Source: an uncultured Bdellovibrionales bacterium (lineage in GTDB: Bacteria; Patescibacteriota; Minisyncoccia; Moranbacterales; UBA1568). Taken from it: 64,000 bases of DNA. Location of the stretch: assembly GCA_964543815.1 (NCBI GenBank), contig CAZIZG010000002.1, positions 50,111 to 114,110 of the forward strand, in the 5' to 3' direction. Below the pieces are notes generated by a model that was not told the origin of the DNA, ran no database searches, and saw only the letters and a list, made by a program, of their open reading frames with translations. Both the position numbers and the translations under genes were made by a program. Of this stretch, positions 3,197 through 46,989 are shown piece by piece; the first letter of the stretch is position 1, and each line of letters begins with the position of its first letter.

Positions 3197-3216
3197 AAAT
3201 ATATGGAGATATTCTA

Positions 3217-3453
3217 CTACTCGACTTCTACTGCCGCACCTTCTACTTCTACGGCAGAGAGGGACTTGATGGTGTTGAGGCGAGCGATGTCTTTTTTCAT
3301 CTTGCGATAATCGCTGTGGTTTTTGGCTTCACGAGTCGACAAATCAAAACGCAGCTTGCGCACCTTGTCCGAGAGCTCCAAGAGAGCTTTGTCTCGTTCT
3401 GCTTCAGATTTTTCTAGCCATTCTTTTACTTTCATACACGCATCATTATTCAA
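3217..3453 (-). CDS. rpmC: 50S ribosomal protein L29
   Basis: L29-like helical protein (KVKEWLEKSEAERDKALLEL…RKLRFDLS…). The true start may be the internal Met at 3435. Confidence 0.8.
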   Translation of the reverse strand: MNNDACMKVKEWLEKSEAERDKALLELSDKVRKLRFDLSTREAKNHSDYRKMKKDIARLNTIKSLSAVEVEGAAVEVE

Positions 3454-3458
3454 AAACT

Positions 3459-3872
3459 CTATTGCTTGACAACAAACTTTGTCTTGATGGCAAGCTTGTA
3501 AGCTGCGAGACTCATAGCTTTTTCTGCTGCTACCCGTGGAATACCCTCGAGCTCAAACAGTACTTTCCCGGCCCGGACCTTAGCGACGAAGTGATCGACA
3601 CTTCCCTTTCCCTTACCCATCGGGGTCTGCTCACCCTTTTTGGTCATCGGTTTATCAGGAAAAACCCGAATCCACACCTTACCACCACGCTGGATAGAGC
3701 GAGTCATAGCCCGACGTGCCGCCTCAATCTGACGAGCTGAAATGAGCCCTTCCTCCATAGCCTTAAGGCCATAGCTTCCAAAACTCACGCTTGTCCCAGA
3801 GGTGGCCGGTTTCCCGGACCATCCGCCGCGCTGGACTTTGCGATGCTTTACTTTTCTTGGCATTAACAACAT
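3459..3872 (-). CDS. rplP: 50S ribosomal protein L16
   Basis: Starts [16 protein letters not shown], the L16 signature. Confidence 0.93.
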
Positions 3873-3880
3873 AAGCGTGT

Positions 3881-4534
3881 TTATTCGGTAGCTCTAAATT
3901 TTTCTCCCTTGTAAATCCAGGTCTTTACTCCGATGACTCCATACGTCGTTCGAGCTTCAGTACGAGCAAAATCAATATCAGCACGGAGTGTATGAAGAGG
4001 GATTTTACCGCGAGATAACCACTCACGACGAGACATCTCAGCACCCCCCAGACGGCCAGAAATTTCAATCTTTACTCCTTCTGCCTCTTTGTTACCCTCT
4101 ACCTGATCAAGCATCCCCTTCAGAACTCGACGAAACGGCATACGCTTTTCCAACTGTTCAGCCACCTGCTGGCCAACAAGCATGGCATTGAGCTCCGCAT
4201 TCTTTACTTCCTGAACCTCCACCTTGAGTTCAACTTTCTTGCCGGCAAAGAAACGCTTCTTAATAACACGTGAGAGATCTTCGATACCCGTCCCGCCACG
4301 ACCGATGAGTACACCTGGGCGAGAAGTATGGATAACTAAACGTAAAGCATTGGCCGAACGTTCAATCGTGACACTAGCGATTGCAGCCGCCTTCCATTTA
4401 CCCATGATAAACTCGCGCATTTCAACATCTTTGCGCAATTGTTCTCGGTAGGTCTTTTTACTTTCAAACCAGCGTGATTGCCAGTTAGTCGTAATACCGA
4501 GACGGATGCCAGTTGGGTGTACTTTATTGCCCAT
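3881..4534 (-). CDS. rpsC: 30S ribosomal protein S3
   Basis: Starts [23 protein letters not shown] and carries a KH domain, characteristic of S3. Confidence 0.93.
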
Positions 4535-4556
4535 AATGTGTTACGTGTACTTTAGT

Positions 4557-5093
4557 TTACGAGGATTTTCGCTGAAACATTTTCTTGACCACTTTGCCAC
4601 CAGTTGGCTTCGCTCCCTTTATCATCTCTTTCTTGAGTTCAGGTTTGGCAATTTTTGCTACTCCCTTTTCTTCTTTCTTTTCCTCTGGAGCTTCAAGCTC
4701 AGCAGCCTTTTCAGTCACAACGACTTTCGGTTCTTTCTTGGTGGTACGATTTTTTCCCTCTACTCGCTCTTCAAGAATAATCGTTATATTGGAACCACGC
4801 CGCATGAGTGGAGTAGCACGACCGAAAGCCCGAGGCAACCAACGCTCTAAACGAAGACCATCACCAACCCGAATCGCTTCGATATAGAGATTGTTTTCAT
4901 CCAGACCAAAATTATTCGTAGCATTCGCTACCGCACTAGCGAGTAGGGTAGCAATCGGCTGCGAAGACTTCTTGACCATCTTTGAAAGCTGAACAAAAGC
5001 TTCACGGGTATCAACGCCAACCAGAGCATGCGTAACCAAGCGCACTTTTCGTGGGGCGACTCGTAAGTTATTGAGGGTTGCGTATACTTTCAT
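4557..5093 (-). CDS. rplV: 50S ribosomal protein L22 with a ~65-aa K/E-rich C-terminal extension
   Basis: L22 core MKVYATLNNLRVAPRKVRLV… followed by the low-complexity tail …EEKKEEKGVAKIAKPELKKE…. Confidence 0.88.
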   Translation of the reverse strand: MKVYATLNNLRVAPRKVRLVTHALVGVDTREAFVQLSKMVKKSSQPIATLLASAVANATNNFGLDENNLYIEAIRVGDGLRLERWLPRAFGRATPLMRRGSNITIILEERVEGKNRTTKKEPKVVVTEKAAELEAPEEKKEEKGVAKIAKPELKKEMIKGAKPTGGKVVKKMFQRKSS

Positions 5094-5101
5094 AGCTTCA
5101 A

Positions 5102-5443
5102 TTATTTCTTGGCAGTAGTAGCGGCTTTAGCGGCTTTAGCAGCATCGAGCTCACGCTGCTTAGCAGCGATTTCGATTTCCTTTTGCATCTTACCACCATG
5201 ACGACGGAAAGTGCGCGTTGGAGCAAATTCACCCAGACGATGTCCAACCATTTCTTCCGTGGTAAATACCGGGATAAAATCCTTGCCATTATGAACACCA
5301 AAGGTGAACCCTACCATCTCAGGCGAGATAACGCAAGCACGCGACCAGGTCTTGATAACCGTTCGGTCACCGAGCTTTTTCCCTTCAATCTTTTTCAAGA
5401 CTCTCGGGTCAACGTATGGGCCTTTTTTGAGACTTCGTGACAT
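5102..5443 (-). CDS. rpsS: 30S ribosomal protein S19 with an A/K-rich C-terminal tail
   Basis: Starts [19 protein letters not shown] and contains [13 protein letters not shown]. Confidence 0.92.
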
Positions 5444-5467
5444 AGATTTCTTCTTGTGGATTCAATA

Positions 5468-6295
5468 CTATTTCTTGGTGCGACGACGGACGATATACTT
5501 ATTGCTCTGGTTCTTGCGGCTACGGGTCTTCTTGCCAAGTGCCGGCTTACCCCATGGTGTCTTCGGATGCATACCAATCGGCTGACGTCCCTCTCCACCA
5601 CCGTGTGGATGATCCACTGGGTTCATAGCGCTTCCACGAACATGCGGACGACGATTCTTCCAACGGCTACGACCAGCCTTACCGATACGCTCAGCACTAT
5701 GTTCGAAGTTACTCACCTGACCGAGAGTAGCGTAGCATTCTTTGCTCACTAACCGGATTTCACCAGAGGCCAGTTTAATCTGGGCCATCGGACCATCCAA
5801 GGCCATAAGAACCGCCTGAGAACCGGCGCTCCGAACAATCTGACCACCCTTTCCAATCTTCATTTCAATATTACAAATCGTGGTTCCGGCTGGAATATTC
5901 TTGAGAAGCATGCGGTTACCATTCACCACCGGGACACTTTCCCCGGAAACCACCGTCCCACCCTGCTTCATACCGTCTGTCGCGAGAATATAGCGCTTCT
6001 CTCCATCAGCATAGTGTACCAAGGCAATGAGAGCCGAACGATTCGGATCTTTTTCCAAATGAGCTATCTTACCAGGGATATCAAGCTTGTCCTGGCGAAA
6101 ATCAACCAAGCGATAGCGACGCTTGTGACCACCACCCTGGTGACGCACGGAAATCTTTCCACCCGAACGACCAGCCCGCTTCTTGTGCGGAGCAAGCAGG
6201 GACTTTTCTGGTGCCTTATCGGTTATACCGTCAGGCTTAACAATCGACATATTACGTCGACCGGCATGGTTCTTTTTGTAGATCTTGATGGCCAT
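5468..6295 (-). CDS. rplB: 50S ribosomal protein L2
   Basis: 275 aa with L2 hallmarks (…MNPVDHPHGGGEGR…). Confidence 0.95.
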   Translation of the reverse strand: MAIKIYKKNHAGRRNMSIVKPDGITDKAPEKSLLAPHKKRAGRSGGKISVRHQGGGHKRRYRLVDFRQDKLDIPGKIAHLEKDPNRSALIALVHYADGEKRYILATDGMKQGGTVVSGESVPVVNGNRMLLKNIPAGTTICNIEMKIGKGGQIVRSAGSQAVLMALDGPMAQIKLASGEIRLVSKECYATLGQVSNFEHSAERIGKAGRSRWKNRRPHVRGSAMNPVDHPHGGGEGRQPIGMHPKTPWGKPALGKKTRSRKNQSNKYIVRRRTKK

Positions 6296-6310
6296 AGGAA
6301 TTCTCTCTGA

Positions 6311-6670
6311 TTACATGCCTGCTTTAAACAGCTCGATGGTCTGGCCCTTGGCCACACTGACAATCGCCTTTTTGATTGAGCCCTTCACCCCGACCGTCCG
6401 GTTGCGACCAGAGACCCGCTTCTTGGCCGGCAATCGTACCATATTGACTGCTACAACATTGACGCCGTATACCTCTTCCACAGCGCGCTTCACTGACTTC
6501 TTGGTTGACGTCTTGGTCACTTCAAAAACGTATTTGTTTTCAACATTCATCGCGTAGGACTTCTCGGTAATGCGAGGACGGGACAGTAAACGCTCAGCAA
6601 GCGGGCTCTCTTTGGGAGTAAGCTTGCGTAGCGTCTTCTTTTCTTCAGTTGTCTTATCAAACAAAGCCAT
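6311..6670 (-). CDS. rplW: 50S ribosomal protein L23 with an N-terminal extension
   Basis: L23 core (…ITEKSYAMNVENKYVFEV…VNMVRLPAKKRV…) at the L4-L23-L2 position. Confidence 0.85.
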   Translation of the reverse strand: MALFDKTTEEKKTLRKLTPKESPLAERLLSRPRITEKSYAMNVENKYVFEVTKTSTKKSVKRAVEEVYGVNVVAVNMVRLPAKKRVSGRNRTVGVKGSIKKAIVSVAKGQTIELFKAGM

Positions 6671-9836: not shown

Positions 9837-10040
9837 GGCGAGTGAGGATTATTGATAAAATACGTTATTTCCCCTTAGGCAAGCAACCTTTCAAAGTACC
9901 ATCGGGTCGCCCCAGCATGGTGACCTGATTGCCTTGAAGTCCTCACTCTTTTTCTTCCAGAAAAAACCATGCCCGTTCTGACTTCAAGGCTACTTTGAAA
10001 GATTCTTGCCAATGGAAAATCTAAGACTCAGCCTACTTTA

Positions 10041-10069
10041 GAAAAGAAAAACCAGCCATCGCTGGCTGG
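10041..10069 (-). terminator. Intrinsic terminator after fusA
   Basis: Stem CCAGCCA / TGGCTGG (plus-strand 10052-10058 / 10063-10069) with a 4-nt loop; on the minus strand it is followed by a T-run (rc of gaaaagaaaaa), directly downstream of the fusA stop. Confidence 0.6.
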
Positions 10070-10097
10070 TTGAGAATTCCTGGCACTCTTTTTCTCC

Positions 10098-12206
10098 TTA
10101 CGCGGGCTTCACATCGCCGGAAGCTGTCCGAGTACCGATAATTTCGGTCGCCACGTTACTGGGGACTTCGGCGTAGTGACCGAATTCCATCGAGTAACTC
10201 GCACGGCCCTGTGACATCGAACGCATCTGGGTAGCGTACCCGAACATTGAGGAGAGTGGCACTTCAGCGTGAATCTCTTTCACCTGAGCAGCTCCTTCAC
10301 CGCGGGCATTCATTTCCTTGATAACACCACGCTTGGACGAAAGATCACCCACGATGTCACCCATAAACTGTTCTGGGGTAATAACTACCACCTTCATAAT
10401 TGGTTCGAGAATCATCGGCTTGGCCTTGCGGCAAGCTTCCTTGAAGGCCATAGAACCAGCAATACGGAAAGCAGCTTCTGAGGAGTCGACATCGTGGTAC
10501 GAACCATCGTACACAGTTGCTTTGATATCCACCATCGGATATCCGGCAAGCACACCCGTGAGCATCGCTTCCTGCACACCTTTATCAATCGGTTTAATAA
10601 ATTCTTGCGGAATAGCACCACCCTTCACTTCATTACCAAATTCGTAGCCCTTACCAACTTCGTTTGGTTCCACCCGAAGCCAACAATGACCGTACTGACC
10701 ACGACCTCCAGACTGCTTGATGTACTTCCCTTCGGATTCCGCTTTACCACGGATAGTTTCACGATAAGCCACTTGCGGACGACCGACATTTACTTCTACT
10801 TTAAATTCCCGACGCATACGATCAACCAAAATATCGAGGTGAAGCTCACCCATACCAGACATAATCGTCTGACCAGTTTCTTCATCAGTATGAACGCGGA
10901 AGGTAGGATCTTCTTCGAGAAGCTTCTTCAGGGCCATACCCATCTTTTCCTGATCTGCCTTGGTTTTTGGTTCAACAGAAATATCAATAACCGGTTCCGG
11001 AAAGGTAATTGACTCAAGAATCACTGGCTTCTCCAAATCACAGAGGGTATTTCCTGTAGTCGTTACTTTCATTCCCACGAGCGCACCGATATCACCGGCG
11101 GAAAGCTCATCGATTTCTTCCCGGTGGTTCGCGTGCATGCGGAGAATACGACCGATGCGTTCTTTTTCATTCTTCGTAGAGTTCAGCACGTACGAACCTG
11201 CTTTGACCGTACCAGAATAAACACGAAAGAATGTCAGTTGACCAACAAATGGATCGGTCGCAATTTTAAACGCCAGTGCTGAGAAAATTTCATCATCGCG
11301 AGTTTCTCGTATTACCTCGGCATCAGTCTTCGGATCCGTTCCCTTAACCGGCGGGATATCAATCGGAGATGGGAGATAGTCCACTACCGCATCAAGCACC
11401 AGTTGAACACCCTTATTCCTAAGTGCCGTCCCAGTCATCACCGGATGAAGTTTCACCGCAATAGTTGCTTTGCGGAGAGCCGCTTTAAGTTCTGCCACGG
11501 AAATCTCTTCGCCATTCAGGTATTTCTCCGTCAAAGCATCATCCGTTTCAGAAATCTTTTCTACCATTTTTTCACGCCATTCTTTAGCCTTATCAGCGTA
11601 TTCTGCTGGAATTTCTCCTTCGATTACCTTTTCACCCATCTCACCATCGAAGGTGTAGGCCTTCATAGTCATGAGATCGATGAGACCGTAGAAATCACCA
11701 CGCAGCCCCATCGGATACTGGATAGCCACCGCGTGCGGAGTCAACCGATTCCAGATAGAAGCAAGTGCCTCTTCGAAAACAGCACCCTCTTTATCAATTT
11801 TGTTGATAAAACACATGCGCGGTACTTCGTATTTCTCCGCCTGACGCCACACGGTTTCAGACTGCGGTTCAACACCCTCCTTCCCGTCAAAGACAACCAC
11901 GCCACCATCAAGCACTCGGAGAGAACGTTCCACTTCAACCGTGAAGTCTACGTGTCCCGGTGTGTCAATGATATTGATATGATGCTCCTTCCAAAAACAA
12001 GTGGTGGCCGCTGACGTGATGGTGATACCGCGCTCCTGTTCCTGCTCCATCCAGTCCATGGTCGCTGTCCCCTCGTGCACCTCACCAATCTTGTGAGTGA
12101 TACCGGTATAAAACAAAATGCGCTCGGTCGTCGTCGTCTTACCGGCGTCGATATGAGCGATAATACCGATGTTACGATACTTGTCGATAGGGGTCTTGCG
12201 AGCCAT
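10098..12206 (-). CDS. fusA: Elongation factor G
   Basis: 702 aa with [12 protein letters not shown] and DTPGHVDF G-domain motifs and EF-G domains IV and V. Confidence 0.97.
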
Positions 12207-20735: not shown

Positions 20736-21419
20736 TTAATTTTCTCTAAGCCAACTCAAGGCAATATCAATGTTCTCTTCAGCGTGTTTCCCTAATCTAA
20801 CCTCATTTGCTAGCCAAAATCTTAGGCCATCTGTCTTGTTTATAAAATTATCTACAAACAAATGTATTCTTCCGTCAGCCATTTTCATGAACACCATACC
20901 AGATTGATCAGCTACTTCTTTCGCCTGCTTATAATTTTCCCCGCCCATTCTAGTATTTAACTGATACCCATTTTCAGGAATTACCATATGCGTAAGCTTA
21001 TTGCGCAAGTCATCCCATACCTTAAAAAGGTCATTCTGGGGCATCCCCCAACTGATGTGAGCATCTTCCATTAATTGTTTAAATGCATCTGTCTCGTTAA
21101 TCTGCCCAACACGTTTAACTAAAACCCGATCTTTAATTTCTGGATGTTCTTTAAAAATTGGTTTCAACAACTCTTTAGCATGATCCTTTTGAGTTTTTGT
21201 AACCACATCCCTCCCATTCAGAATTGCATTTATTTTTGCTAAATATCCGATTACAGCAAATAAGCCTAAGACTATAAGAAAGTTTCCGCCACCTATTTCT
21301 TTAATCTCACTAAAAACCGCGGGGTGTTCAGCGCGGGCCCAAACAAAAGTATTTGTATCGGCTATTATGCTAAATGGACGATTTTCAATGAGAGAAGCTA
21401 GCTCTTCTAATTTATCCAT
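20736..21419 (-). CDS. Hypothetical protein (227 aa, one predicted TM helix), AT-rich orphan
   Basis: Long ORF whose composition is markedly AT-richer than its surroundings. No recognisable domain. It has its own terminator and sits right after the ftsZ terminator. Confidence 0.55.
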   Translation of the reverse strand: MDKLEELASLIENRPFSIIADTNTFVWARAEHPAVFSEIKEIGGGNFLIVLGLFAVIGYLAKINAILNGRDVVTKTQKDHAKELLKPIFKEHPEIKDRVLVKRVGQINETDAFKQLMEDAHISWGMPQNDLFKVWDDLRNKLTHMVIPENGYQLNTRMGGENYKQAKEVADQSGMVFMKMADGRIHLFVDNFINKTDGLRFWLANEVRLGKHAEENIDIALSWLREN

Positions 21420-32148: not shown

Positions 32149-32161
32149 TCATAATCGCATG

Positions 32162-32638
32162 CTAGCGATAATAACAGGAAGAAGCACCAGAATGCGGATC
32201 GTACACGATATAGACCAGTGCACCGCCCTCGAGATCCCATTCCCAATCATTCCGAAAGCGCGTCTCTTCGGCGGCCCTGAGCATCTCAATCCGAGCAAAC
32301 AACTCATCTTGCCATTCCGGCAGGAAATCTGTCACCCAGGGATTCGACAATGCGGTCTCAGCAAATCGTTCCACCACGTCACCGCGATCACATTGCCGAT
32401 AACGAAATCCTGGACAAGAGAGCAGTGGGTACTGATACCCCCGCCTCGGCTTGAAGAAAGTTTGCACATCCCCACCCCGTCGAAGCGGATTACCCTCCTG
32501 GTATTCCAGATCGGGCCACAGTCCGGAAGACGCGTTCCTTTCAAGCTCAGACCGGTCACGATGGAGAATCTCCATCTGACCACAGTGTGCGCACAAAAAA
32601 CCAAACATAACGCCCTCGCTTTTCAACAAAATTATCAA
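32162..32638 (-). CDS. Hypothetical Cys-rich protein (CAHC … CPGFRYRQC), possible metal-binding
   Basis: 158-aa ORF with its own terminator. No family recognised. The start may be the internal Met (MFGFLCAHCG). Confidence 0.5.
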   Translation of the reverse strand: MIILLKSEGVMFGFLCAHCGQMEILHRDRSELERNASSGLWPDLEYQEGNPLRRGGDVQTFFKPRRGYQYPLLSCPGFRYRQCDRGDVVERFAETALSNPWVTDFLPEWQDELFARIEMLRAAEETRFRNDWEWDLEGGALVYIVYDPHSGASSCYYR

Positions 32639-32681
32639 TGTTCAATGTTCAAAAACGTAGCACACCCCTCTCCACTCCGTC

Positions 32682-32712
32682 AAATAAAAAAGAGCCTTTA
32701 GAGCTCTTTTTT
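32682..32712 (-). terminator. Intrinsic terminator after gyrB
   Basis: Minus strand reads AAGAGC-ucuaaag-GCUCUU followed by UUUUUAUUUG. Confidence 0.55.
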
Positions 32713-37322: not shown

Positions 37323-38237
37323 CTAGGAAGATCTCCGACGCATCAGTATGGCGCCACCAATCCCAAGAACCAGGGTTCCTGTGAAAATCAGGAAGATCAG
37401 CAACGGACGAGGAACCTTACCGAAAACCTGCAAGTATTTCTCGTCGACTCCCTCTGTAACCAACCTTTTCTCTGGAAGGCCCACCGCCAAAATCTTTTGG
37501 TCAAGAACCTCATTATCACTCCCTCGCAGGCTAACAGTCACCTGATTGGCGCAAGTACCCTCAGTCGGAAATGACGCAATCACCGTCTCGGCACCTGAGG
37601 TAACGATTTGTTTTTCCATTAAAACCGCACACTCCTTGCCGCTCATGTCATCCAGCGTTACATGAAGGAAGAGGGTCTTTTCTGAAACTACCGCTTTTGT
37701 TTGGTCGATATTCACTGTAAGCCGAAAACTATCTTGCCAGGCGTACCGTTCCCGATCAAATTTAGCACCAGTTATCCTCGCTTCTGTCTGCCCAACCTCT
37801 ACCGAACCGAGAAGATAGGACTCGTGAGCCAACGCTCGACCTGAACCATTTTCCTGAAGAGAAAACGTGTACTGATACTCTCCTCCTTGAAAGACCGCTG
37901 GGAAAGTAAGCGCGACACTTGCTGTTTCATTTCCTTTGAGCATAACCACACTTCCAGTCGTAGAAAGGTCTCTTCCCTCAAAAACCTGCTTTCCGAGAAT
38001 GAAAGCTGAAAGATCCTTATTTTTATCAGTTGCAGAAACATCACAATGTACCGTCAATGCTTCACCCGAAACCTGAACAAATGCTCCGACGATATCAGTC
38101 TTTGTATTTTCAGGAAGACAATATATAGACACGGGATAATCAACTGGCGCCGACTTGATCCTTTGTAGCGGCACAGCCAACCCCAATACCGTAAGAAACC
38201 CGAGAAAGATGGAGGTTGTGAGATTCCTCTGTTGCAT
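37323..38237 (-). CDS. Secreted surface protein with a C-terminal TM anchor; paralog A of the N-terminal module of the giant ORF
   Basis: Signal peptide (MQQRNLTTSIFLGFLTVLGLA…), a beta-rich body, and a C-terminal TM helix plus basic tail (…LVLGIGGAILMRRRSS). Local similarity (G-K/E-ECA … VSL.GS…VLD) to aa ~300-400 of the 38282..42679 product. Confidence 0.6.
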   Translation of the reverse strand: MQQRNLTTSIFLGFLTVLGLAVPLQRIKSAPVDYPVSIYCLPENTKTDIVGAFVQVSGEALTVHCDVSATDKNKDLSAFILGKQVFEGRDLSTTGSVVMLKGNETASVALTFPAVFQGGEYQYTFSLQENGSGRALAHESYLLGSVEVGQTEARITGAKFDRERYAWQDSFRLTVNIDQTKAVVSEKTLFLHVTLDDMSGKECAVLMEKQIVTSGAETVIASFPTEGTCANQVTVSLRGSDNEVLDQKILAVGLPEKRLVTEGVDEKYLQVFGKVPRPLLIFLIFTGTLVLGIGGAILMRRRSS

Positions 38238-38281: not shown

Positions 38282-41200
38282 CTATGGCGCCACTTCTTTC
38301 CAGTTGTAGTCACAAGAGCGAGTCCCCGGACAATTGATGGTGTTACCACAGCCATCATTAGTAATAACATACTGAGAACCCACGCAGACATTGTCTGTAT
38401 CAGCAGTATGATTGACACAATTATCCGTCGGAACACAAACGTTTGAACATATCGTTCCGTTCCAAAAAAGAGGGATCGCACAGGTAGCACCAACACTTTT
38501 AGTACTGAGTGTTATTCCGTCATGGACGAAAGTAAAGGTATTCCCTCCAGCAGAAACGTGCTTAATTGGTCGGATAACCGTACCCGGGGTAGCTGATGTC
38601 GCTGTACTAAACTCGATACCATCCTGCTGAATTGAGGGAGTCATTGTGAGATTCGAACTCGTCCAAGCAACATAGATATTACACGTTGAAGCACCATTTG
38701 GTATGGTACAAGCCCCATTAGTGAAGTTGGCCGTTGGTACCCCCGCCTCACAAATCCCAAGCGTTGCATTCCATACACCCGCACAAGTCCCACGAACCGT
38801 GACCATATCGCGCGTGGCAAGAGTATCATCACGCAAACGTACCGAATTATTCCCAAATGTTATGGGAAATGCTACGGCCGTACCAGACAGAGCAGTTGAA
38901 TACGTAATATTGCGAGTCCAATTATAGACACTGGCACTCGCCAAATTCTGTGTCCACCAGGTGAAATTGACATCGCACGTTGATTGACCCACGGGAATCG
39001 TACAGCTCGTTGGCCAAGCCGAAAGCATCCCCCCACTTGCCTGGCAAATACCCTGATTCCAGATGAGCGCACCGAAACAAACCGCTGTCATAGTAGCCTG
39101 TTCAAACAATCCTCCCTGATCTCGCAATGTAACCGTGTGAGAGCCGTAATCCAAAGCAACCGGCTGGTTACTCGCTGCTGGATTGTTACTCGTATAGCCC
39201 GTTCCAGAAACTGAGAGTTCGATTGGCGGCACCGCATCGCCGGCAGTTGTCCAGCTCACTCGCCCAGTACAGGTACTATTACCCGCCAAAATAGTACAAC
39301 CTTGAGCCTGAGTAATACCACTCGTTGTTCCCATTCGAAAAGTCACACTGATAGTACCATTAGAAGTAATATTATTAAACGTATACGAACCCGGAGCGCC
39401 AATATTAACCGGGCCGCTCCCCGTATTTACGATAACAGTATCAATAACGTATGGGTAATTTTCTGTAATAGTAAAAGTGCGACTGCTTCCGGCAGGAATA
39501 CCACTGATACTGCCTGAGGGAGAAATGAACCCACCTGAACCAGCCGTAGCAGTAATGGTATAGGTCGTGGGAATAGGTGCGGTGCACGTACCACTATTGG
39601 TACCGACCGGACTACCAGCACCAAGACAGGTCCACTGATAATTAAGCGCTGTGTCAGCCGGTGAATTCGAGTACGTTCCGGAAACACACGTTTCTGCGGT
39701 CACGCCACAGACTCCGTTTATGGTCGTGACACAAGCATTCGGAGCACTCGTATTAACCGCTCCTGACCAACTTGATGACCCGCTTCCATTGGTCGCCCGC
39801 ACGGTATAGCTGTGCGCCGATCCCGCCATGAGACCCGTGTGACTGAAGCTTGAAGTAGCCCCATCATAAATCTGAGTTCCACCGTCGCGGAGCTGATAAC
39901 TGGTAGCGCCGGAAACACTGTTCCAACCAATGTTTATAGTACCACTGCCGCAGGCAGCTGGTGATGCATTAAGCGATGTAGGTGTGCCAGGAATGCCGGC
40001 GGCACAAGCATTCGGAGCATTTGCGTTAACTACCCCCGACCAAGCCGACGATCCGCTCCCGTTCGTTGCTCGTACCGTATAACTATGGGAGGATCCATCA
40101 GTCAGTCCCGTGTGATTAAAGCTCGGAGTGGCCCCATCATAAATCTGAGTTCCACCGTCGCGGAGCTGATAACTGGTAGCGCCGGAAACACTGTTCCAAC
40201 CAATGTTTATAGTACCACTGCCGCAAGCTCCGGGATTTGCTGAAAGCAACGAGGGTGTACCAGGGACACTCACTGCCTTCGCTTCCGTACACGAGGGGGA
40301 ATTAGATCCGCCACCTGAACCCATACAGGTCCAGTTATAGGTAGTAGCGGTATCACCATCCAACCGAGTTGTTCCAGCAACACAATTGTAGTGCGTCGGG
40401 GCACAAACTCCATCTACCCGAGGAGGATTCACGGTGATAGTTGTCGTATCAGTAGCTGTTCCTGCCACATTAGAACAACTGATGGTATAGGTAAATACCC
40501 CGGTCGGTAGACCCGTCAACCTATAATTACTATAGCTCAAGTCACTCCTACTGATACCATTTCCAGAAACCGAGCAACTCGTAGCACTAGTCGAACTCCA
40601 AGTCAGTGCTGCGTTCTCACCCACAGTGATAACGGTACCACTTCCAGCATGTACTACGGAATCCCCTCCCGTTATCACTGAAAATGTTTTTCGCCACCAA
40701 GATTCTTCGACAGACGCGACTGGACCACTTGCTGAAATAGTAGCGGTTGGAGCTACTACTGCTGGATTCACCTGAAGCGTCCGCGTCAATGAGGTAGCCG
40801 ACCCACCGGGGCCCGTACAGGTCACACTCTGTGTGTAGGTCCCAGCGCTCATCGCCGGTGTACTAATTCCAGCATTACTCGTTCCTACATTGCCATTCCA
40901 GATACCTGACCCCGTACAAGAAGTGGCATTCGTTGAGGAGAAAGATATTGATGATGTACTCCCAGCTGTTATAGTAGCGGGATTAAAGGGACTCAGTGTC
41001 ACCGTTGGAGCAGGTGGAGCGGCTATCATAAAATTTAACCGCCCTATATCCATAGACCAGGCCAAATCGGCGCCGGAGCTATTTCTGACGTTGATGACGA
41101 GACGCAACGAAATAAAGTGCCCTCCCGATGACATGCCTCCCGGAATAGCAAATGAGGCATTATAAGGACCAACCACTGTTCCAAAAAATGACATCCCTGA

Positions 41201-42679
41201 AAAGGGCACTTCTACATATCCCCAGGCCGGCAAAGTCTGAGTACCGACTATATCAGCATCGTAGATGGGTCCTGAAAAGTACCCTACCGTTGCAACAGTC
41301 TTTGAAGCTGCCCCCATAGGAGTATCCTTTTCAAAGGTGTACGTCGTTGAAAGTGTCATTGTGTCTCCTGGAACGTATGATGCCTTATCTGAAGATACCG
41401 TAGCTGTTGATGTGACCGCCACTTCACCCATATACATTTGTGTAGTAGACAGGGTCATGGCATGAGTCTGATGCGCTACCCCTATAAGCCCTCCTCCTAC
41501 CACAATAAGAAAAACTCCAACCTTCATGACGCTCGATCGACGGAACAAGGCTCGCCCTCGAAAGAAAACAGCCATGATAACAATGAGTCCCACTATTGCG
41601 TACCCGACCCTTTGTTTGGTAAAAAAAGGAGATGCAACATCCTTCGAGGCATCCTGCGGAAGAAAAAGATTCTGATTCGTCATTTTTTCCAAAGAGAATG
41701 ATTGCTCAATACTATCAAGCACATCACCCGATGAACTAAGCAACGTCACCTCCGCCACACCAGAACGACACGATGCCTGAAATGAAAACTCTGCGACAGC
41801 GCCCATACTATCATTAGTGACATCGGCGCATTCCCCTTGGTCGTGCTTCAAAACAAGGTGTACTCGCAAATCCCTCGTGGGTCGATTAATGGCAACCACC
41901 CCTGACACACTTCCTTCTTTTTGTCCTTTGTACAGAAGGACATTCGCAATTTTACTGGCGGGACCCGGGACCCGAAAACGGAGCACAGAGACCTTTCCTT
42001 GTGTCGTATGAATGATAGCGACATACCCACCAGCGGAAAGTTTTGGCTGCACTACTACAGCCTTGCCGGCCTCTAGATTTACTTTTTCTGATCCTGCCTC
42101 AACACCAAAAAATGATTCTTTGTGATAAATAATATCCAACGTTTCATCTCCTTCTTGAGAAATACAGGAAAAACCACTTTCATTTCCATCAACCGAACAA
42201 GATGCTTTGCTCCCATCTCTTTCGCCAAAATCCCTTTCTGTTACCTTTTGTCTTCCCAAGGGAACACCTCTCTCGGTCTCAGCATATATCCATACTACAA
42301 CTTTACCTTCAAGAGAAACAGGAAAAACGTATGAAAGAGGCATAACCCTTACCTCCCCTTCGTGCAGAGTATCGATTTTTCCAATTGGCATTACATCAAG
42401 AGGATTACCCTCTTCATCCGTTGTAATGATTCCATAGACAATACCATTTTGCTGCCCTCGCCCCCCTAGTACCGAAAATGACCCCTCTACTCCATCTTCC
42501 CGAGATTGGACAGAAACATCTCCAACGTTGACGTCAGCTACCACCGTGGTGTGCTGTGATGATGCAGGAATATCTGCCGGCACTGATTGCATGGCTGTAT
42601 CCTCTGCTCGCACAGAAAAAACACTAAAAGAAAAAACTGCCAGAAGCACGAATCCAAATACAAAACTTCTGAAAATCAT
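38282..42679 (-). CDS. Giant cell-surface protein (~1465 aa from the ATG at 42679): signal peptide, paralog-B module with TM anchor, a second signal-peptide-like segment, then a long Ser/Thr/Gly/Cys-rich body with two tandem Fn3-like repeats
   Basis: The ORF-track version begins at a TTG (42748); the first ATG with a signal peptide is MIFRSFVFGFVLLAVFSFSVFSVRA at 42679. At aa ~385-430 the sequence reads …IVGLIVIMAVFFRGRALFRRSS-VMKVGVFLIVVGGGLIGVAHQTHA…, a TM anchor plus basic tail followed in frame by a signal-peptide-like segment. There is an internal ATG at 41527. Confidence 0.6.
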   Translation of the reverse strand: MIFRSFVFGFVLLAVFSFSVFSVRAEDTAMQSVPADIPASSQHTTVVADVNVGDVSVQSREDGVEGSFSVLGGRGQQNGIVYGIITTDEEGNPLDVMPIGKIDTLHEGEVRVMPLSYVFPVSLEGKVVVWIYAETERGVPLGRQKVTERDFGERDGSKASCSVDGNESGFSCISQEGDETLDIIYHKESFFGVEAGSEKVNLEAGKAVVVQPKLSAGGYVAIIHTTQGKVSVLRFRVPGPASKIANVLLYKGQKEGSVSGVVAINRPTRDLRVHLVLKHDQGECADVTNDSMGAVAEFSFQASCRSGVAEVTLLSSSGDVLDSIEQSFSLEKMTNQNLFLPQDASKDVASPFFTKQRVGYAIVGLIVIMAVFFRGRALFRRSSVMKVGVFLIVVGGGLIGVAHQTHAMTLSTTQMYMGEVAVTSTATVSSDKASYVPGDTMTLSTTYTFEKDTPMGAASKTVATVGYFSGPIYDADIVGTQTLPAWGYVEVPFSGMSFFGTVVGPYNASFAIPGGMSSGGHFISLRLVINVRNSSGADLAWSMDIGRLNFMIAAPPAPTVTLSPFNPATITAGSTSSISFSSTNATSCTGSGIWNGNVGTSNAGISTPAMSAGTYTQSVTCTGPGGSATSLTRTLQVNPAVVAPTATISASGPVASVEESWWRKTFSVITGGDSVVHAGSGTVITVGENAALTWSSTSATSCSVSGNGISRSDLSYSNYRLTGLPTGVFTYTISCSNVAGTATDTTTITVNPPRVDGVCAPTHYNCVAGTTRLDGDTATTYNWTCMGSGGGSNSPSCTEAKAVSVPGTPSLLSANPGACGSGTINIGWNSVSGATSYQLRDGGTQIYDGATPSFNHTGLTDGSSHSYTVRATNGSGSSAWSGVVNANAPNACAAGIPGTPTSLNASPAACGSGTINIGWNSVSGATSYQLRDGGTQIYDGATSSFSHTGLMAGSAHSYTVRATNGSGSSSWSGAVNTSAPNACVTTINGVCGVTAETCVSGTYSNSPADTALNYQWTCLGAGSPVGTNSGTCTAPIPTTYTITATAGSGGFISPSGSISGIPAGSSRTFTITENYPYVIDTVIVNTGSGPVNIGAPGSYTFNNITSNGTISVTFRMGTTSGITQAQGCTILAGNSTCTGRVSWTTAGDAVPPIELSVSGTGYTSNNPAASNQPVALDYGSHTVTLRDQGGLFEQATMTAVCFGALIWNQGICQASGGMLSAWPTSCTIPVGQSTCDVNFTWWTQNLASASVYNWTRNITYSTALSGTAVAFPITFGNNSVRLRDDTLATRDMVTVRGTCAGVWNATLGICEAGVPTANFTNGACTIPNGASTCNIYVAWTSSNLTMTPSIQQDGIEFSTATSATPGTVIRPIKHVSAGGNTFTFVHDGITLSTKSVGATCAIPLFWNGTICSNVCVPTDNCVNHTADTDNVCVGSQYVITNDGCGNTINCPGTRSCDYNWKEVAP
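39735..40285. repeat. Tandem direct repeat (2 copies of a ~273-bp unit) inside the giant surface-protein gene, encoding two ~91-aa Fn3-like modules
   Basis: A near-identical ~100-bp core (…ccccatcataaatctgagttccaccgtcgcggagctgataactggtagcgccggaaacactgttccaaccaatgtttatagtaccactgccgca…) begins at 39859 and 40132. The protein repeats read GTINIGWNSVSGATSYQLRDGGTQIYDG…YTVRATNGSGSS. Confidence 0.85.
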
Positions 42680-42808: not shown

Positions 42809-42851
42809 AGAAAAAAAAACCGCCACCTTAGAATTTCTTCTAAGTTGGCGG
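42809..42851 (-). terminator. Intrinsic terminator after the GC-rich lipoprotein gene
   Basis: Compound stem CCGCCAC-CTTAGAA-tttc-TTCTAAG-TTGGCGG. On the minus strand it is followed by a run of 9 U. Confidence 0.6.
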
Positions 42852-42865: not shown

Positions 42866-44815
42866 TCAGTTCGGTGCGAGAATGGCCCACGGCTGTGGAC
42901 CCACTCCCGCGATGACACGCTTCACGGCAAGCGTCTGGCGATCAAGTACCGCCACACTGTCACCATCGAACCAGATGTCCTTCCGGGGCAGTGCCACCCA
43001 GACTTCGTTCCCAACCAGAGTCATGCCCATGGGCATATCCCCAGTCATCACCCGTCCGGTTTCCTGAAGCGTCGCTGGATCGTAAGCCACGACATGGGAG
43101 TCGTAGTCACTCACGAGGAGTCGCTTGGTAACCGGATCGATCAGAAGTCGCATGGCATGCTGCCACTGACCCGTAAGCCCCGGCAAGCCACGTGTCACCA
43201 CGTTGCCTGTCGAAAGGGTGATGGTTGAAAGGGTGTTGTCGCCGGAGTTGGCGACAGAGAGCACCCCTCCATCCTCCACCACATCCTGCGGCACCGACCC
43301 CACCGTGAAGGTTCGGCTGATTTGGCAGGATGACTCGCAGCCAAACTCGGTCACCGTACCGGAAGTACCAGCCCGATAACCATCGCGACTCTTATAGGTG
43401 TCTTGCTCACCGTACATACCACTTCTGGCAGCATTGAGCGAGTAGAACTTTCCAGTAGTCGCCGAGTAGTGCAGCCTCATGGAGACCATGTCGGCCGGAA
43501 TGAATCCCGGCCCTGTCTCCAGCCGTTCACCCGTGAGGTGATTAAAGCAGATGACCTTGCCCTGCCAGATATAGGCGTCCGGATACTGATTGCCCAATAT
43601 CACGCACACCTGCGTCGGTGACGAAGCGACACTGTGAATCCCGTGTGCCAGAGCCGGCGCCGGATCAAGCTGGAAGGCTGAGAGCACCACTCCTGTCTCA
43701 CCATCCAGGCGATACAGAAACTGAGCGTACGTGGCCGGCGCAGCGTAGACCACGCCCGCCACCGCACTCCAAGCCAGGTGGCCATTGGTGAACTGGTAGC
43801 TCCCAAGCGCATCGCCCAGGTGTACCGTCCGCGACGCACCCGAGGCCGAGACAATGGAAACGCCCGCCTTGGTCGTGAAGTTTCCCTTCCAATTCCCCAC
43901 AAACACCTGGCCATTGGTTGTGGCCGAGCGAGTAGTGAAACTGAGGGTGGTAGCGGCACTGGGGTAGCCGAGGCTCCCCTGAATGCCGCCGACCGTGAGC
44001 GTATTGCTCGCGCCCATCGGCCAGCGCTCTTCACCCGGGAGACCCGGGAGGATGTTGACGGTCTTCCCCGCACTGTCGCAGGTAACCGTCGCCAACACTT
44101 GACCCATCTTGCCCGTCCCACTGACGCCGGTGCAATTGAGCACCTGGTCGTAGGTCAGGGTGAGCCTGGTCAGTTTGGCAACAACATCCGTTGCACCATC
44201 AGCCGGCACTTGGCGGTCAGCGGTGACAAGCGTCGCTTGCAACAACTTCGGACCGCACAGGGTCGGCTTGACCTGACACTTGAAGTCACCGAGAGCGCCG
44301 AAGCGCACGAGGACATTCCCGGTGTAGGGCCCGATGCCATACACCCCACCGACATCACTGCCGCCGACACGCACGCCCACCAGGTTGCCCCGGTAGTCAC
44401 GGTAGTCATAGGAGTTACCGTCAGCGAGCACGTTGTAGTTCGTGCTCGCCGCACCGACGAAGAGCGACGGGTAGCGTACTGCTGCCCAGTCAAAGAGCTC
44501 GTCGTTACTCACCTGGTCAGTATTGACTGCCAGGGCCTGAGCTCGTCCACCCTGACCGGTCTTGGCCGGGGTGAACCGAATTTCGATGGTCGCCGGAGCG
44601 ACTGAAGGTGGCACTGAGAGCGCCTGAGCCCGTGGCGACCCATCAAAAACGGTACCGCGGTCGACAGCTGACCCAGTGAAGGGGACTGCGACTATGGGCT
44701 TGTCAGTCACAGGAGCAGAGGGAGTAGTGGCTGATCCACCACCTCCACAACCGGAAAGCACCAGAAATGAAACCGCGGCCAGGGCCGCGCAAAGCGTACG
44801 ATAGACCGAGGCCAT
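42866..44815 (-). CDS. Lipoprotein with Ig-like and YVTN/beta-propeller-like repeats; GC-rich, compositionally foreign
   Basis: Lipobox FLVLSGC right after an N-terminal signal, 649 aa. Repeated …DSHVVAYDPATL… and …LLVSDYD… beta-propeller-like segments. Strong SD (GGAGGG) before the ATG, unlike native genes. Visibly high GC with overlapping spurious ORFs in other frames. Confidence 0.65.
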   Translation of the reverse strand: MASVYRTLCAALAAVSFLVLSGCGGGGSATTPSAPVTDKPIVAVPFTGSAVDRGTVFDGSPRAQALSVPPSVAPATIEIRFTPAKTGQGGRAQALAVNTDQVSNDELFDWAAVRYPSLFVGAASTNYNVLADGNSYDYRDYRGNLVGVRVGGSDVGGVYGIGPYTGNVLVRFGALGDFKCQVKPTLCGPKLLQATLVTADRQVPADGATDVVAKLTRLTLTYDQVLNCTGVSGTGKMGQVLATVTCDSAGKTVNILPGLPGEERWPMGASNTLTVGGIQGSLGYPSAATTLSFTTRSATTNGQVFVGNWKGNFTTKAGVSIVSASGASRTVHLGDALGSYQFTNGHLAWSAVAGVVYAAPATYAQFLYRLDGETGVVLSAFQLDPAPALAHGIHSVASSPTQVCVILGNQYPDAYIWQGKVICFNHLTGERLETGPGFIPADMVSMRLHYSATTGKFYSLNAARSGMYGEQDTYKSRDGYRAGTSGTVTEFGCESSCQISRTFTVGSVPQDVVEDGGVLSVANSGDNTLSTITLSTGNVVTRGLPGLTGQWQHAMRLLIDPVTKRLLVSDYDSHVVAYDPATLQETGRVMTGDMPMGMTLVGNEVWVALPRKDIWFDGDSVAVLDRQTLAVKRVIAGVGPQPWAILAPN

Positions 44816-44952
44816 GATGGGCCCTCCATAAAAGTTGATACTAAATTGTCAAAGCCCGCATGGCGGGGTGACTGTGAGACGAGTCAAAAACAAGGGATTA
44901 ACCTGCCTTCTCGTTGTCAACAAAATAGCATTATTAAGCCATTTTGTCAATA

Positions 44953-46230
44953 TTAAAGGAGCTTTTTATAATTATCAGCCCAGTAGAGAATACCATTGAT
45001 GTATGGAGCATAGCTCGTCCCAAGATAGGCTGCGGCTGCCCGTTTCCAGGCCGACCGATTCCCATCATCTACTCCGGGAACCTTATCAAGCTTCAAGGCC
45101 ATCGCCATAACACCATCTGTTAGATTCCAGGGACTGGGTGGATTATGTCCAGTTGCTGAGGCTACCGACGACTTATAAGCGACCCAGGTGTCGGGCATAA
45201 ACTGCGCCACCCCCATAGCCCCACCAGTTCCAATATACCCTTTAGGATTACAGGATACTTTTTGTTTACGATAATCGATATCAAGTTCCTTCGTAATTGT
45301 TTTGAAAATATCACGCCGACGGAGAAAAGTGGCCCAGGCTGTCTTACCAAGTTTCTTTGCTTTATAACTCGCATTCGCTCCATCCTCAACCTGAGCATAG
45401 GTGCAACCTCCAACATTAGCACCGAGGTTTGTTTCCATTTTGAGAACTCCGAATAAAAAACCCTTAGGAACGCCCGTTTTCTTACTGGCAAAATCTACGG
45501 CATCTTCAATATCTTTAGCGTTGTAGGACTTACCAAGTATCTTATTCAAATCACCCTGCAATTCACTCAGTTCTTTTTTTAATCGATTCACCGTGGTAGC
45601 CTGGTCCTCAAGATCATCCTGGACATCATTCTTTGCCACCACCAAATTTTGTTTTTGTTTATTTTGGATAGCAAGCAGCTCTTCGTGATCTTGTTTCGCA
45701 TCTTCTAGTGTCGACTTCTCATCTACAATTTTACTTTTCGTCACATTGATGTCATCGATTATCGAGGCTATCTTTTCCTGCGTTGAGAGCAGACCCTCCT
45801 CATTTTGAAAAAAATGAGTTACATCATCCTGAGAGAGAACAATTTCCACAAGTGGCGTACCATCTGATAGATAGAGCTCCTGCATGAGGCTCCCTAAAAT
45901 TTTCCGTTCCAAGGTAAGTTGATTATCCAAATTGGCAATTTCAGCCTCTTTTTGATCGATGGTCTGACTGGTCTGATTGAGGAGATTCTGCACACGAAGT
46001 ATGGCTGCCTGAGTCGATGTCAGATTGGTCGTAATCTGGTTGAGATTACTTTGGAGAGCGCCATACTTTTTCTCAGCATCCTTCAGTTTCTTTTCCAGTT
46101 TTTCGATATCATCCTGAATCTCGTCCGCTGATTCATCAGCCTGCGCCGGATGAGCATACACACATAAGGAGAGGATTCCAAAAAATCCAAGAAAAAACAG
46201 ACTCAAAAAAGTGGTTTTGATATTGCTCAT
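44953..46230 (-). CDS. Secreted coiled-coil protein with a C-terminal MltB-like lytic transglycosylase domain
   Basis: Signal peptide at the internal Met (MSNIKTTFLSLFFLGFFGILSLCVYAHPAQA). About 230 aa of coiled coil, then …GGAMGVAQFMPDTW…, the MltB/Slt35 signature. Confidence 0.75.
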   Translation of the reverse strand: MSNIKTTFLSLFFLGFFGILSLCVYAHPAQADESADEIQDDIEKLEKKLKDAEKKYGALQSNLNQITTNLTSTQAAILRVQNLLNQTSQTIDQKEAEIANLDNQLTLERKILGSLMQELYLSDGTPLVEIVLSQDDVTHFFQNEEGLLSTQEKIASIIDDINVTKSKIVDEKSTLEDAKQDHEELLAIQNKQKQNLVVAKNDVQDDLEDQATTVNRLKKELSELQGDLNKILGKSYNAKDIEDAVDFASKKTGVPKGFLFGVLKMETNLGANVGGCTYAQVEDGANASYKAKKLGKTAWATFLRRRDIFKTITKELDIDYRKQKVSCNPKGYIGTGGAMGVAQFMPDTWVAYKSSVASATGHNPPSPWNLTDGVMAMALKLDKVPGVDDGNRSAWKRAAAAYLGTSYAPYINGILYWADNYKKLL

Positions 46231-46407: not shown

Positions 46408-46989
46408 GTGGATTTTCAGAAAAACCCCGTTACGCATGCCATTCTGACCTGCTACGACGATCGTATCGATGACGTCGTGGGTCAGGAAGTGGAGCGAATT
46501 CGGTCAGAGGGCGGCATCATTCGGGACAAAGACATCATCCGACCCCCAGGTGGCGTGCACATGCTTGCCGGCAAGACCGACTGCCGCAAGGCCTTCTACG
46601 AGATGATTTCTGGCCTGCATGTCATCGCCAGGACGACGGTCTTCCATCTTTGGCCTCACACCAACTGCCAATACTGCGGCATCCATCTTCCAGAGAAACT
46701 GGGCAACGGCAGCAAAAGCGATCTTCGCTTTCACCTGCGAAGCGCCGAAAAGATGCTCGATGGAGCCATGGGACACTTCGCTGCCAGCGCTGCGGGCACC
46801 GTTCCCACTCTCGATGTCCGCATCATCCTGACTGTCGACCAGCGCATCATCACCATCGACCAAGCGCATGGCCTACTTCCCAATGTCCCTGAGGGCAACC
46901 AACACGGCGCTCCGTGCTTGAGCTCGACCCTTCACCCAGGCAACGGACACCATCGTTCCCACGGAATCTCTCATCATCAGCAGAGCTAG
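46408..46989 (+). CDS. Beta-carbonic-anhydrase-like protein (tentative); GC-rich, strong SD, GTG start
   Basis: CxDxR (ILTCYDDRID) and HxxC (HTNCQYCG) motifs spaced as in beta-CA, 193 aa, with a His-rich C-terminus. GAGGAGG lies 7 nt before the GTG. Confidence 0.4.
   Translation: MDFQKNPVTHAILTCYDDRIDDVVGQEVERIRSEGGIIRDKDIIRPPGGVHMLAGKTDCRKAFYEMISGLHVIARTTVFHLWPHTNCQYCGIHLPEKLGNGSKSDLRFHLRSAEKMLDGAMGHFAASAAGTVPTLDVRIILTVDQRIITIDQAHGLLPNVPEGNQHGAPCLSSTLHPGNGHHRSHGISHHQQS

Follow-up and report, generated by a model that had tools for sequence, protein, structure and literature searches.

Several mRNAs of bacterial envelope proteins are known for their stability, including those of E. coli ompA with its stabilizing 5' untranslated region (UTR), of lpp, and of S-layer genes with their leaders. 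Extensive internal structure is found in the lpp mRNA. It is also a highly translated lipoprotein mRNA (PMC5924895). In Flavobacteriales, a lineage blind to the Shine-Dalgarno (SD) sequence, rpsU, encoding ribosomal protein bS21, is a rare SD-led gene (PMC9976891, PMC7797042, PMC13000453). The gene described here, which encodes a 649-aa beta-propeller lipoprotein, can be compared with each of these. It lies on the minus strand of a 64,000-nucleotide stretch of DNA deposited as that of an uncultured Bdellovibrionales bacterium (assembly GCA_964543815.1, contig CAZIZG010000002.1, positions 50,111 to 114,110). This whole stretch is called the window, and all coordinates without a locus label are positions in it. 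Our reading, held with slightly more belief than doubt, is that this is a resident, fast-evolving surface lipoprotein gene, whose guanine-cytosine (GC)-rich, structure-rich and SD-led mRNA is kept by selection.

Like the ompA-type mRNAs, the lipoprotein mRNA comes from a monocistronic envelope gene having a strong promoter, an SD and a terminator, and it has a structured 5' UTR of ~100 nt, in which the first hairpin starts near the predicted 5' end. It shares neither sequence nor Rfam family with the ompA leader, and it differs from both ompA and lpp in that the structure excess spans a coding sequence (CDS) of 1.95 kb and that codon usage is not of the highly-expressed type. The likeness to rpsU lies in a strong conserved SD on one gene where other genes lack it, implying special translational control. 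The product is a lipoprotein and not a ribosomal protein, the lineage is another one, T stands at position -1 instead of upstream adenines, and nothing points to autoregulatory logic. Neisseria pilE/pilS and mosaic adhesin and receptor genes encode surface antigens varying by recombination. The family studied here resembles them in the sharp-edged replacement of domain segments between near-identical strains, in its discordant modules, and in a second paralog, a possible donor, in some genomes; it differs in that no silent promoterless cassettes were seen (both paralogs have a full promoter and leader) and no dedicated recombination signal was identified. Analyses of the Katz and Burge type have reportedly found a weak genome-wide tendency to local RNA structure in bacterial coding regions. 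The same type of shuffle points here in the same direction, to more structure than chance, but the effect is family-specific, large (z down to -8), absent from 16 controls, and coupled to a third-position GC content (GC3) far above that of the host.

The gene had been picked out in the original prediction, made from the DNA alone, as far GC-richer than its host, and calculation bears this out. GC is 0.607 in the CDS (0.62, 0.515, and 0.685 at codon positions 1, 2, and 3) and 0.4825 in the window, and native window genes mostly have GC3 of 0.41–0.56, about 0.48. In a 150-nt profile the limits of the GC-rich block are those of the CDS, and flanking intergenic DNA has GC of 0.29–0.45. Base composition and codon usage are both atypical, in the manner of a horizontally transferred gene. 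The codon usage is a general third-position shift to GC, away from GCT, GGT, and CGT (r = 0.32), the codons preferred by ribosomal-protein and elongation-factor genes; translational selection for the codons of highly expressed genes was rejected on this ground. The open reading frames (ORFs) reported antisense to the gene are real (275 aa at 43778–44605 on the plus strand, plus others), and they arise because TTA and CTA codons are absent from the CDS. An antisense overlapping gene was considered and rejected: besides this explanation, TCA occurs at a genome-typical rate and is not avoided, and the longest antisense open stretch, 307 codons, compares with 193 +/- 48 in synonymous shuffles (P of only 0.026).

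Predicted folding of the coding region was expressed as the mean energy of 120-nt windows and compared with shuffles preserving the protein, codon usage and all dinucleotide counts. The lipoprotein CDS has a mean of -46.4 kcal/mol per 120 nt vs. -41.8 +/- 0.56 in shuffles (z = -8.2). Nine other family genes deviate in the same way (z = -4.6, -6.0, -3.8, -6.1, -5.2, -3.6, -3.5, -4.6, and -3.4), and 16 control genes, including EF-Tu, EF-G, rpoC, FtsK, gyrB, the giant neighbour of the lipoprotein gene, and GC-rich genes of the relatives L025 and L027, range from -1.55 to +1.70. The excess persists in shuffles within 30-codon blocks (z = -5.3 to -6.7); these and the dinucleotide-preserving shuffles led to the rejection of local GC heterogeneity and dinucleotide bias as sources of an artefact. 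Long inverted repeats were likewise rejected, only short imperfect ones being present. The excess is greater on the sense strand (z = -7.2) than on the antisense strand (z = -3.0). It is spread along the gene; toward the start the sign turns, as one would expect there (z = +1.8 and +2.4 over the first 120 nt). Between the alleles of L010 and L011, which share 71% of nucleotides, 175 predicted pairs are broken vs. 215 +/- 9 under a site-matched null, and 32 double compensatory changes are found where 20.9 +/- 4.0 are expected. The excess of structure in these folding models stems from how the synonymous sites are arranged, and the sense strand shows it most.

Contigs carrying homologs were read at 14 distinct loci (labelled L008–L027). 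Family genes have GC of 0.55–0.64 and GC3 of 0.59–0.74 at every locus, and GC3 of their neighbours runs from 0.36 (L010, L011, L015) to 0.72 (L025). Across 12 loci, family GC3 (0.59–0.72) is uncorrelated with neighbour GC3 (r = 0.18); L027, analysed separately, has a family GC3 of 0.74. In the higher-GC relatives L025, L022, and L027 (0.58–0.61 GC), the family gene looks native. Next to the lipoprotein gene, the window encodes a giant surface protein rich in immunoglobulin-like (Ig) and fibronectin type III domains (38282–42679, minus strand, ~1,465 aa from the likely ATG) and, downstream of it, a 304-aa secreted protein (37323–38237, minus strand). The giant and ~300-aa proteins have diverged to the same degree as the lipoprotein (28–47% identity between species having housekeeping proteins 80–95% identical), and their genes have ordinary or low GC3, so that fast evolution alone does not account for the high GC3 of the lipoprotein gene. 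At the loci examined, the family keeps its GC-richness, SD, promoter, leader, and excess folding whatever the GC of its neighbours, except that the promoter and full leader are not recognizable in L022.

The locus is old. Orthologs 33–48% identical to the lipoprotein occupy the same place in relatives, in the shared order RecA, SLT-domain coiled-coil gene, lipoprotein gene, giant surface protein, ~300-aa secreted protein, and S6-SSB-S18-EF-P-gyrB. The gene is not patchily distributed: it is present at the syntenic locus, with the full gene order kept, in four other species (L008/L014, L019, L026, and L027), and part of it survives in L010, L011, and L015. Housekeeping neighbours in the window and L008 are 79–95% identical as proteins, with only 0.30–0.40 of fourfold sites identical (near saturation), and the two lipoproteins are 40% identical. 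With fourfold sites of the neighbours near saturation, the lipoprotein gene must have been at this locus before these species split, which left time enough for an imported composition to ameliorate. Homolog loci carrying the housekeeping neighbours have the same gene order, and at the homolog loci most neighbouring genes are without an SD and start with T at -1. The neighbours of L025 are also without SD and mostly have T at -1; this start style suggests that L025 is a relative rather than a foreign donor, and the order RecA – SLT-domain gene – family gene marks L027 as a relative likewise. No tRNA, integrase, transposase, or meaningful flanking repeat was found near the lipoprotein gene, the only tRNA in the window being 28 kb off, and searches for plasmid or phage homologs of the lipoprotein gave no matches. 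The lipoprotein gene is resident, clade-wide, and monocistronic. The proposal of a recent import from a high-GC donor is largely refuted, as all 14 readable homolog contexts resemble relatives, by gene order or start-codon style, and not a distant donor lineage.

The strong GGAGGG that the original prediction set against SD-poor native genes does stand out. A 4-mer SD core precedes only 3 of 39 native starts in the window, 34 of the 39 have T at -1 (TATG), and position -6 is A-rich. The same style, with T at -1 and little SD, is seen in related loci, including the 58% GC relative L025. Genes of the lineage generally lack an SD, and that of the lipoprotein gene is conserved: GGAGG, GGAGA, or AGGAG is present in every ortholog, mostly within GGAGGCCATCATGGCAACC, and in 14 of 14 family loci. 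We know of no described lineage in which T at -1 dominates. According to a survey, SD use is moderate in Bdellovibrionota and lowest in Bacteroidia, Verrucomicrobiales, and Cyanobiaceae (PMC10798248). That SD is nearly absent here suggests that the Bdellovibrionales label is a mislabel or stands for an atypical sublineage.

Upstream of the gene, the four TTGACAA/TTGACT motifs already remarked upon at ~30-nt spacing were found on the minus strand, starting at 44950 (TTGACAA), 44920 (TTGACAA), 44887 (TTGACT), and 44852 (TTGACAA), at spacings of 30, 33, and 35 nt. TTGACAA is not enriched window-wide (13 found vs. 11.9 expected), and three copies within 105 nt on one strand have a Poisson probability of ~2e-7 per 105-nt stretch and ~3e-4 for the whole window. 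They had been taken for -35-like boxes or a repeated operator; this holds for the first, a conserved -35 box, and not for the other three, which fall within the leader and whose TTGAC is not conserved. The arrangement TTGACA/TTTACA-N17-TGCTAnnnT recurs in 12 orthologs with a recognizable promoter, and L022 is the exception, its promoter and first leader helix (P1) being unrecognizable. Motif 2 lies at the leader 5' end, motif 3 in the 3' side of P1, and motif 4 after the second helix (P2); in orthologs these places read GGCAAC, TTTCGCC or TTGGCTC, and TTACCAAC or TTAACAAC. With its own promoter and a strong terminator after the stop codon, the lipoprotein gene is monocistronic (terminators were checked in the window).

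Leaders of orthologs are ~100–125 nt long. They open with (G)GCAACGAGA, followed by P1, a linker ending in TAGTCC or ATCGTCC, the GC hairpin P2 of variable length, the motif TT[GAC][AC]CAA[TC], a spacer of 8–27 nt, and the SD region. P1 starts 1–8 nt after the predicted transcription start. When 11 leaders are folded independently for minimum energy, P1 and P2 come out each time, and RNAalifold predicts both from a 7-sequence seed. In P1, 86–91% of cells are paired and both sides have changed in four of eight pairs. The closing pair of P2 is G-C or A-U (four sequences each), and its loop varies from 3 to about 40 nt. The third helix, P3, shows a compensatory double change in L008, GGAGaCCAUCAUGGuC, in which a G-to-A change in the SD region accompanies a C-to-U change in codon 2 (Ala to Val). 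As MAFFT alignments of the leaders were out of structural register, they were replaced by alignment to a covariance model, R1, which comprises P1, P2, and P3 and started from the 7-sequence seed. A nhmmer profile and R1 match only upstream of family genes (171–303 kb searched; window match at 44804–44921, E = 6.7e-15). R1 matches upstream of every family gene in 171 kb, including six loci outside the seed; it is weaker in L022 (E 3e-4) and L025 (E 0.03–0.004), and nowhere else is E < 0.01. Pairing reaches 88.4% of cells vs. 81.9 +/- 1.3 in shuffles (reached by 0 of 500) and 33–66% in slid controls, and 15 cells with double changes are counted vs. 5.6 expected (again reached by 0 of 500 shuffles). 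Rfam 15 has no gathering-level match in the window, and the best E-value in 44700–45000 is 1.7, to an unrelated snoRNA model. Covariation supports all three helices. The leader is a candidate for a cis-regulatory RNA motif that is new and tied to a defined gene. Two further ideas were tried and dropped: a long-range pairing of leader UAGUC with codons 5–7, present in some orthologs and absent from the window and L012, and mimicry of the anti-SD (CCUCC) by the P1 3' arm, which holds in L012 and L016 only.

Table 1. Features of the lipoprotein gene and its flanks in the window.
Feature	Position	Strand	Basis or remark
Lipoprotein CDS	42866–44815	-	649 aa, ATG start; GC-rich, pervasive excess of predicted mRNA structure
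-35 box TTGACA (first TTGAC motif)	44945–44950	-	Promoter scan: TTGACA-17-TATTTT, TG upstream
Extended -10 element TGCTATTTT	44922–44930	-	TGCTA invariant in aligned orthologs (TGGTA in L027)
Predicted transcription start	near 44915	-	
Conserved structured 5' leader, ~100 nt	44816–44915	-	nhmmer profile and covariance model R1
Second, third, and fourth TTGAC motifs, in leader	44914–44920, 44882–44887, 44846–44852	-	
Leader helix P1, long imperfect hairpin	44879–44914	-	Purine-rich 5' arm, CU-rich 3' arm, outer pairs ACGAG/CUCGU
Leader helix P2, CCCGC-CAU-GCGGG hairpin	44855–44867	-	Followed by conserved motif TT[GAC][AC]CAA[TC] (44845–44852)
Shine-Dalgarno GGAGGG, 6 nt before ATG	44822–44827	-	Start region tatGGAGGGcccatcATG
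Helix P3, small hairpin	44801–44829	-	3' part of SD region pairs with G of AUG and codon 2
Signal peptide with lipobox (residues 1–23; Cys23 predicted to be lipidated)	44747–44815	-	Sequence MASVYRTLCAALAAVSFLVLSGC, LSGC
Low-confidence, probably disordered tether (residues 24–100)	44516–44746	-	Predicted local distance difference test (pLDDT) < 50 at residues 1–77 and 83–100
Small alpha/beta domain (residues 104–190) and Ig-like domain (191–296)	43928–44506	-	AlphaFold model
Seven-bladed YVTN-type beta-propeller (residues 300–649)	42869–43918	-	TIGR02276, AlphaFold, Foldseek; segment swapped between strains
Intrinsic terminator CCGCCAACUUAGAAGAAAUUCUAAGGUGGCGG then U9	42811–42851	-	Folding energy -28.2 kcal/mol, z = -3.2

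The protein is, as proposed, a surface beta-propeller lipoprotein by lipobox, profile match, AlphaFold model, and fold. Its N-terminus MASVYRTLCAALAAVSFLVLSGC has the positive n-region, hydrophobic core, and lipobox [LVI][ASTVI][GAS]C of a predicted signal peptidase II substrate, and Cys23 and Gly25 are invariant among 33 aligned family members. TIGR02276, the YVTN beta-propeller repeat of NCBIfam, scores 32.1 bits vs. a cut-off of 27.85 (E = 8.4e-8). The AlphaFold model, made with seven homologs as input, has a mean pLDDT of 74.7; residues 300–649 are all-beta with pLDDT mostly 85–95. In the PDB, Foldseek finds generic propellers only, the best compact match being the 7-bladed E. coli YncE (target TM-score 0.70, root-mean-square deviation 3.3). 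The likeness to YncE is that of the C-terminal 350 residues, a 7-bladed propeller with the TIGR02276 match above cut-off. YncE, in contrast, is soluble, periplasmic, and single-domain, lacking the lipid anchor, the tether, and the alpha/beta and Ig-like domains that precede the propeller here, and the architecture with a MATT.. N-terminus and the leader is confined to about 45 clusters. A Pfam scan of the 649-aa protein found no family, none covering the whole protein, and PADLOC gave no result for it. Homologs have faint Big_5 (PF13205) matches in the alpha/beta and Ig-like region, in which the conserved motifs CGPK, LNCxGV, and PGEERWP are also located. A word-indexed search had found seven relatives; the wider family was exposed by an exhaustive hidden Markov model search of 1.84 billion representatives. 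It has about 45 clusters in all, ~25 full-length ones, all with a MAT../MA.. start and an L-[SA]-[AG]-C-GGGG lipobox, and ~20 shorter ones without the N-terminal domain. No full-length homolog outside the family was found among these representatives, where only generic YVTN-repeat giants match otherwise.

Different parts of the gene have different histories. L010 and L011 are near-identical strains: their giant genes have 94% protein identity and 95% of fourfold sites the same, their ~300-aa proteins are 99% identical, and the flanks overall are 94–99% identical as proteins with 95–99% of fourfold sites the same. Their leaders do not differ until about 17 nt before the ATG. Within the CDS, nucleotide identity is 81–98% over the first ~925 nt and 42–58% over the ~1,050 nt coding for the propeller, and it is complete again in the final ~35 nt and in the terminator. 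Identities of the N-terminal and propeller parts are discordant across the family (91/45, 45/72, 73/35, and 47/80%). Sharp mosaic boundaries and discordant modules, as in variable surface antigens, are thus shown for the family; as for the strain of the window itself, seven other contigs are 100% identical to the window and no variation is seen in its allele. Judged from these alignments, recombination swaps both the propeller part and the N-terminal part as the family evolves. The propeller may be an exposed binding or antigenic tip under diversifying selection and an interaction surface with the giant neighbour. L019 has two paralogs (2605–4524 and 9929–11110), each with its own promoter and leader. 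Paralogs occupy either slot A, before the giant gene, or slot B, after the ~300-aa gene, and the window has slot A only. The giant gene also has a hypervariable patch between near-identical strains (L010 4863–5141, 46–67% nucleotide identity).

Some other genes deviate in composition or start. A second GC-rich, SD-led ORF, with the SD agAGGAGGtcccgctGTG, is found at 46408–46989 on the plus strand of the window (193 aa, GC 0.574, GC3 0.675), opposite to the strand of its neighbours. The product is Cys/His-rich (TCYDDR, PPGG, HTNCQYCGIH, His-rich tail) and 69–75% identical to ORFs in L014 (312–824, minus strand) and L019 (400–963, minus strand). It has no Pfam or PADLOC match and shows a weak excess of folding (z = -0.4 to -1.8); public gene calls place a 121-aa gene on the other strand there instead, which is probably wrong. 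An AT-rich outlier of 227 aa at 20736–21419 (minus strand; GC 0.374, GC3 0.325, C at -1) has the lowest codon-adaptation value in the window and no clear Pfam family. Two overlapping ORFs on opposite strands, 32159–32701 (plus) and 32162–32638 (minus), lie between gyrB and the next gene, with no Pfam match for either; the former has an SD-like GGGGAGG, and its folding z is -2.6. In L026, the SLT-domain gene and the family gene are separated by an inserted block of five genes (2518–6374), which encode Fic, a 159-aa protein, a 230-aa lipoprotein, a C39-like peptidase, and NUDIX. The lipoprotein gene of this block (4226–4918; product ..VLAACGGGG) has GC of 0.59, GC3 of 0.70, AT-richer neighbours, and a folding z of -3.5, so that GC-rich, structured mRNAs may be found in a wider class of lipoproteins.

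If the reading of a selected resident gene is right, the lipoprotein gene would be a long-resident, monocistronic member of a fast-evolving surface module that also comprises the giant and the ~300-aa secreted protein, and its foreign look would be a conserved property of its own expression module. This module consists of a near-consensus sigma-70 promoter with an extended -10 element, a structured leader of ~100 nt that contains P1 and P2, a canonical SD of which part pairs with the start codon in P3, GC-rich synonymous sites arranged for pairing beyond chance, and a strong terminator. Selection would keep the mRNA heavily folded, the high GC3 being the means of folding, and the SD would be needed to load ribosomes on a folded mRNA where ordinary genes start without one, in AU-rich surroundings with T at -1. 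The benefit of the folding would probably be mRNA stability, translational control, or both, by analogy with the stable envelope-protein mRNAs.

Several other explanations of the unusual composition have been weighed. That the gene was acquired recently from an unrelated high-GC donor and brought its own SD along is what GC of 0.61 vs. 0.48, GC3 of 0.69, the strong SD, and the generic codon shift to GC would suggest at first sight. It is extremely unlikely, given syntenic orthologs in several species with saturated synonymous divergence, homolog contexts that resemble a relative in every case examined, and the lack of mobility genes, nearby tRNA, flanking repeats, and plasmid or phage homologs; full-length homologs outside the family are absent among the 1.84 billion representatives, and the promoter, leader, and terminator are AT-rich and conserved together with the gene. 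A horizontal component exists as segment exchange inside the family, demonstrated for the family and not for the copy of the window. On this exchange builds the main rival to our reading, in which the gene is an old resident drawing on a shared allele pool, its GC being high only by repeated replacement of alleles or segments from higher-GC relatives, with no selection on GC or RNA structure as such. Segments are replaced between near-identical strains, module relationships are discordant across the family, relatives of 0.58–0.61 GC hold native-looking copies with the same leader, and alleles do differ in composition (GC3 of the swapped propeller is 0.54 in L010 and 0.66 in L011). We consider this a serious but doubtful alternative. 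It leaves unexplained the z of -3.4 to -8.2 against composition-preserving shuffles, when GC-rich controls have z near 0; the N-terminal part, 81–98% identical between L010 and L011, has not been recently replaced, yet is the GC-richest (GC3 0.69); family GC3 does not follow neighbour GC3 across the 12 loci; and the AT-rich leader and terminator flanks are native-like. GC-biased gene conversion, in which frequent recombination at the locus and a repair bias raise GC3 passively, would fit a gene that is a recombination mosaic and has raised GC3 along its whole length. It is quite improbable, and was rejected as the sole cause, since hypervariable patches of the adjacent giant gene remain at an ordinary GC3 of 0.36–0.40; moreover, the giant and ~300-aa genes are equally divergent but GC3-poor, and sense-strand-specific excess folding is not predicted by it.

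Two further alternatives concern the regulatory elements. The repeated TTGACAA could act as promoters in tandem or as repeated operator sites bound by a regulator, instead of being parts of an RNA leader. The window has four TTGAC motifs at 30–35 nt spacing, L008 has three, and the local cluster is non-random. Only the first motif has a -10 partner at the right spacing, however, and positions 2–4 are not TTGAC in nine other orthologs, yet their pairing partners or another conserved motif are kept, so that this explanation is very unlikely. A different, rather unlikely idea is that the lineage has two translation regimes, with ordinary genes lacking an SD and a small class of GC-rich, folded, SD-led mRNAs that would stay stable while a dedicated leader RNA of a kind not described before (P1 and P2 plus the SD/AUG hairpin) gates their translation, in effect a switch on stored mRNA. 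The class would hold the lipoprotein gene, its paralogs, and perhaps 'ACGGGG' lipoproteins such as that at L026 4226–4918, and a factor, signal, or ribosome subpopulation would expose the SD, giving a switch for surface variation or a life-cycle stage.

Selection for a folded, SD-led mRNA in a resident gene remains the reading we prefer, and some points weigh against it. Ongoing exchange of alleles with higher-GC relatives, with no selection on GC, could be behind some of the excess in GC. In the two short homologs, which come from high-GC genomes, the excess of folding is weak (z = -1.7 and -2.0). The energies of folding are predicted values, the L010/L011 pair test controls rate heterogeneity along the gene incompletely, and leader covariation was counted on 12 distinct sequences after their alignment to the structure of the model itself, so that the counts are biased in its favour. 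The 'genome average' to which the gene is compared is that of the 64-kb window and short flanks. No 16S rRNA with its anti-SD is present in the window or the loci. The transcription start is predicted, and the benefit in stability or translational control is one that we infer. All functional claims come from prediction and comparison.

At this strength, the finding means that the usual signature of horizontal transfer, atypical GC, codon usage, and ribosome-binding signal, can be a stable selected trait of a resident gene, which compositional island finders would mislabel. If true, it would be an unusually clean natural case of synonymous sites building RNA structure over a 2-kb coding region, and it would link RNA structure to SD use in a lineage otherwise starting translation without SD. 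For the uncultured bacterium itself, the swapping of modules marks the propeller as a probable interaction surface of its envelope.

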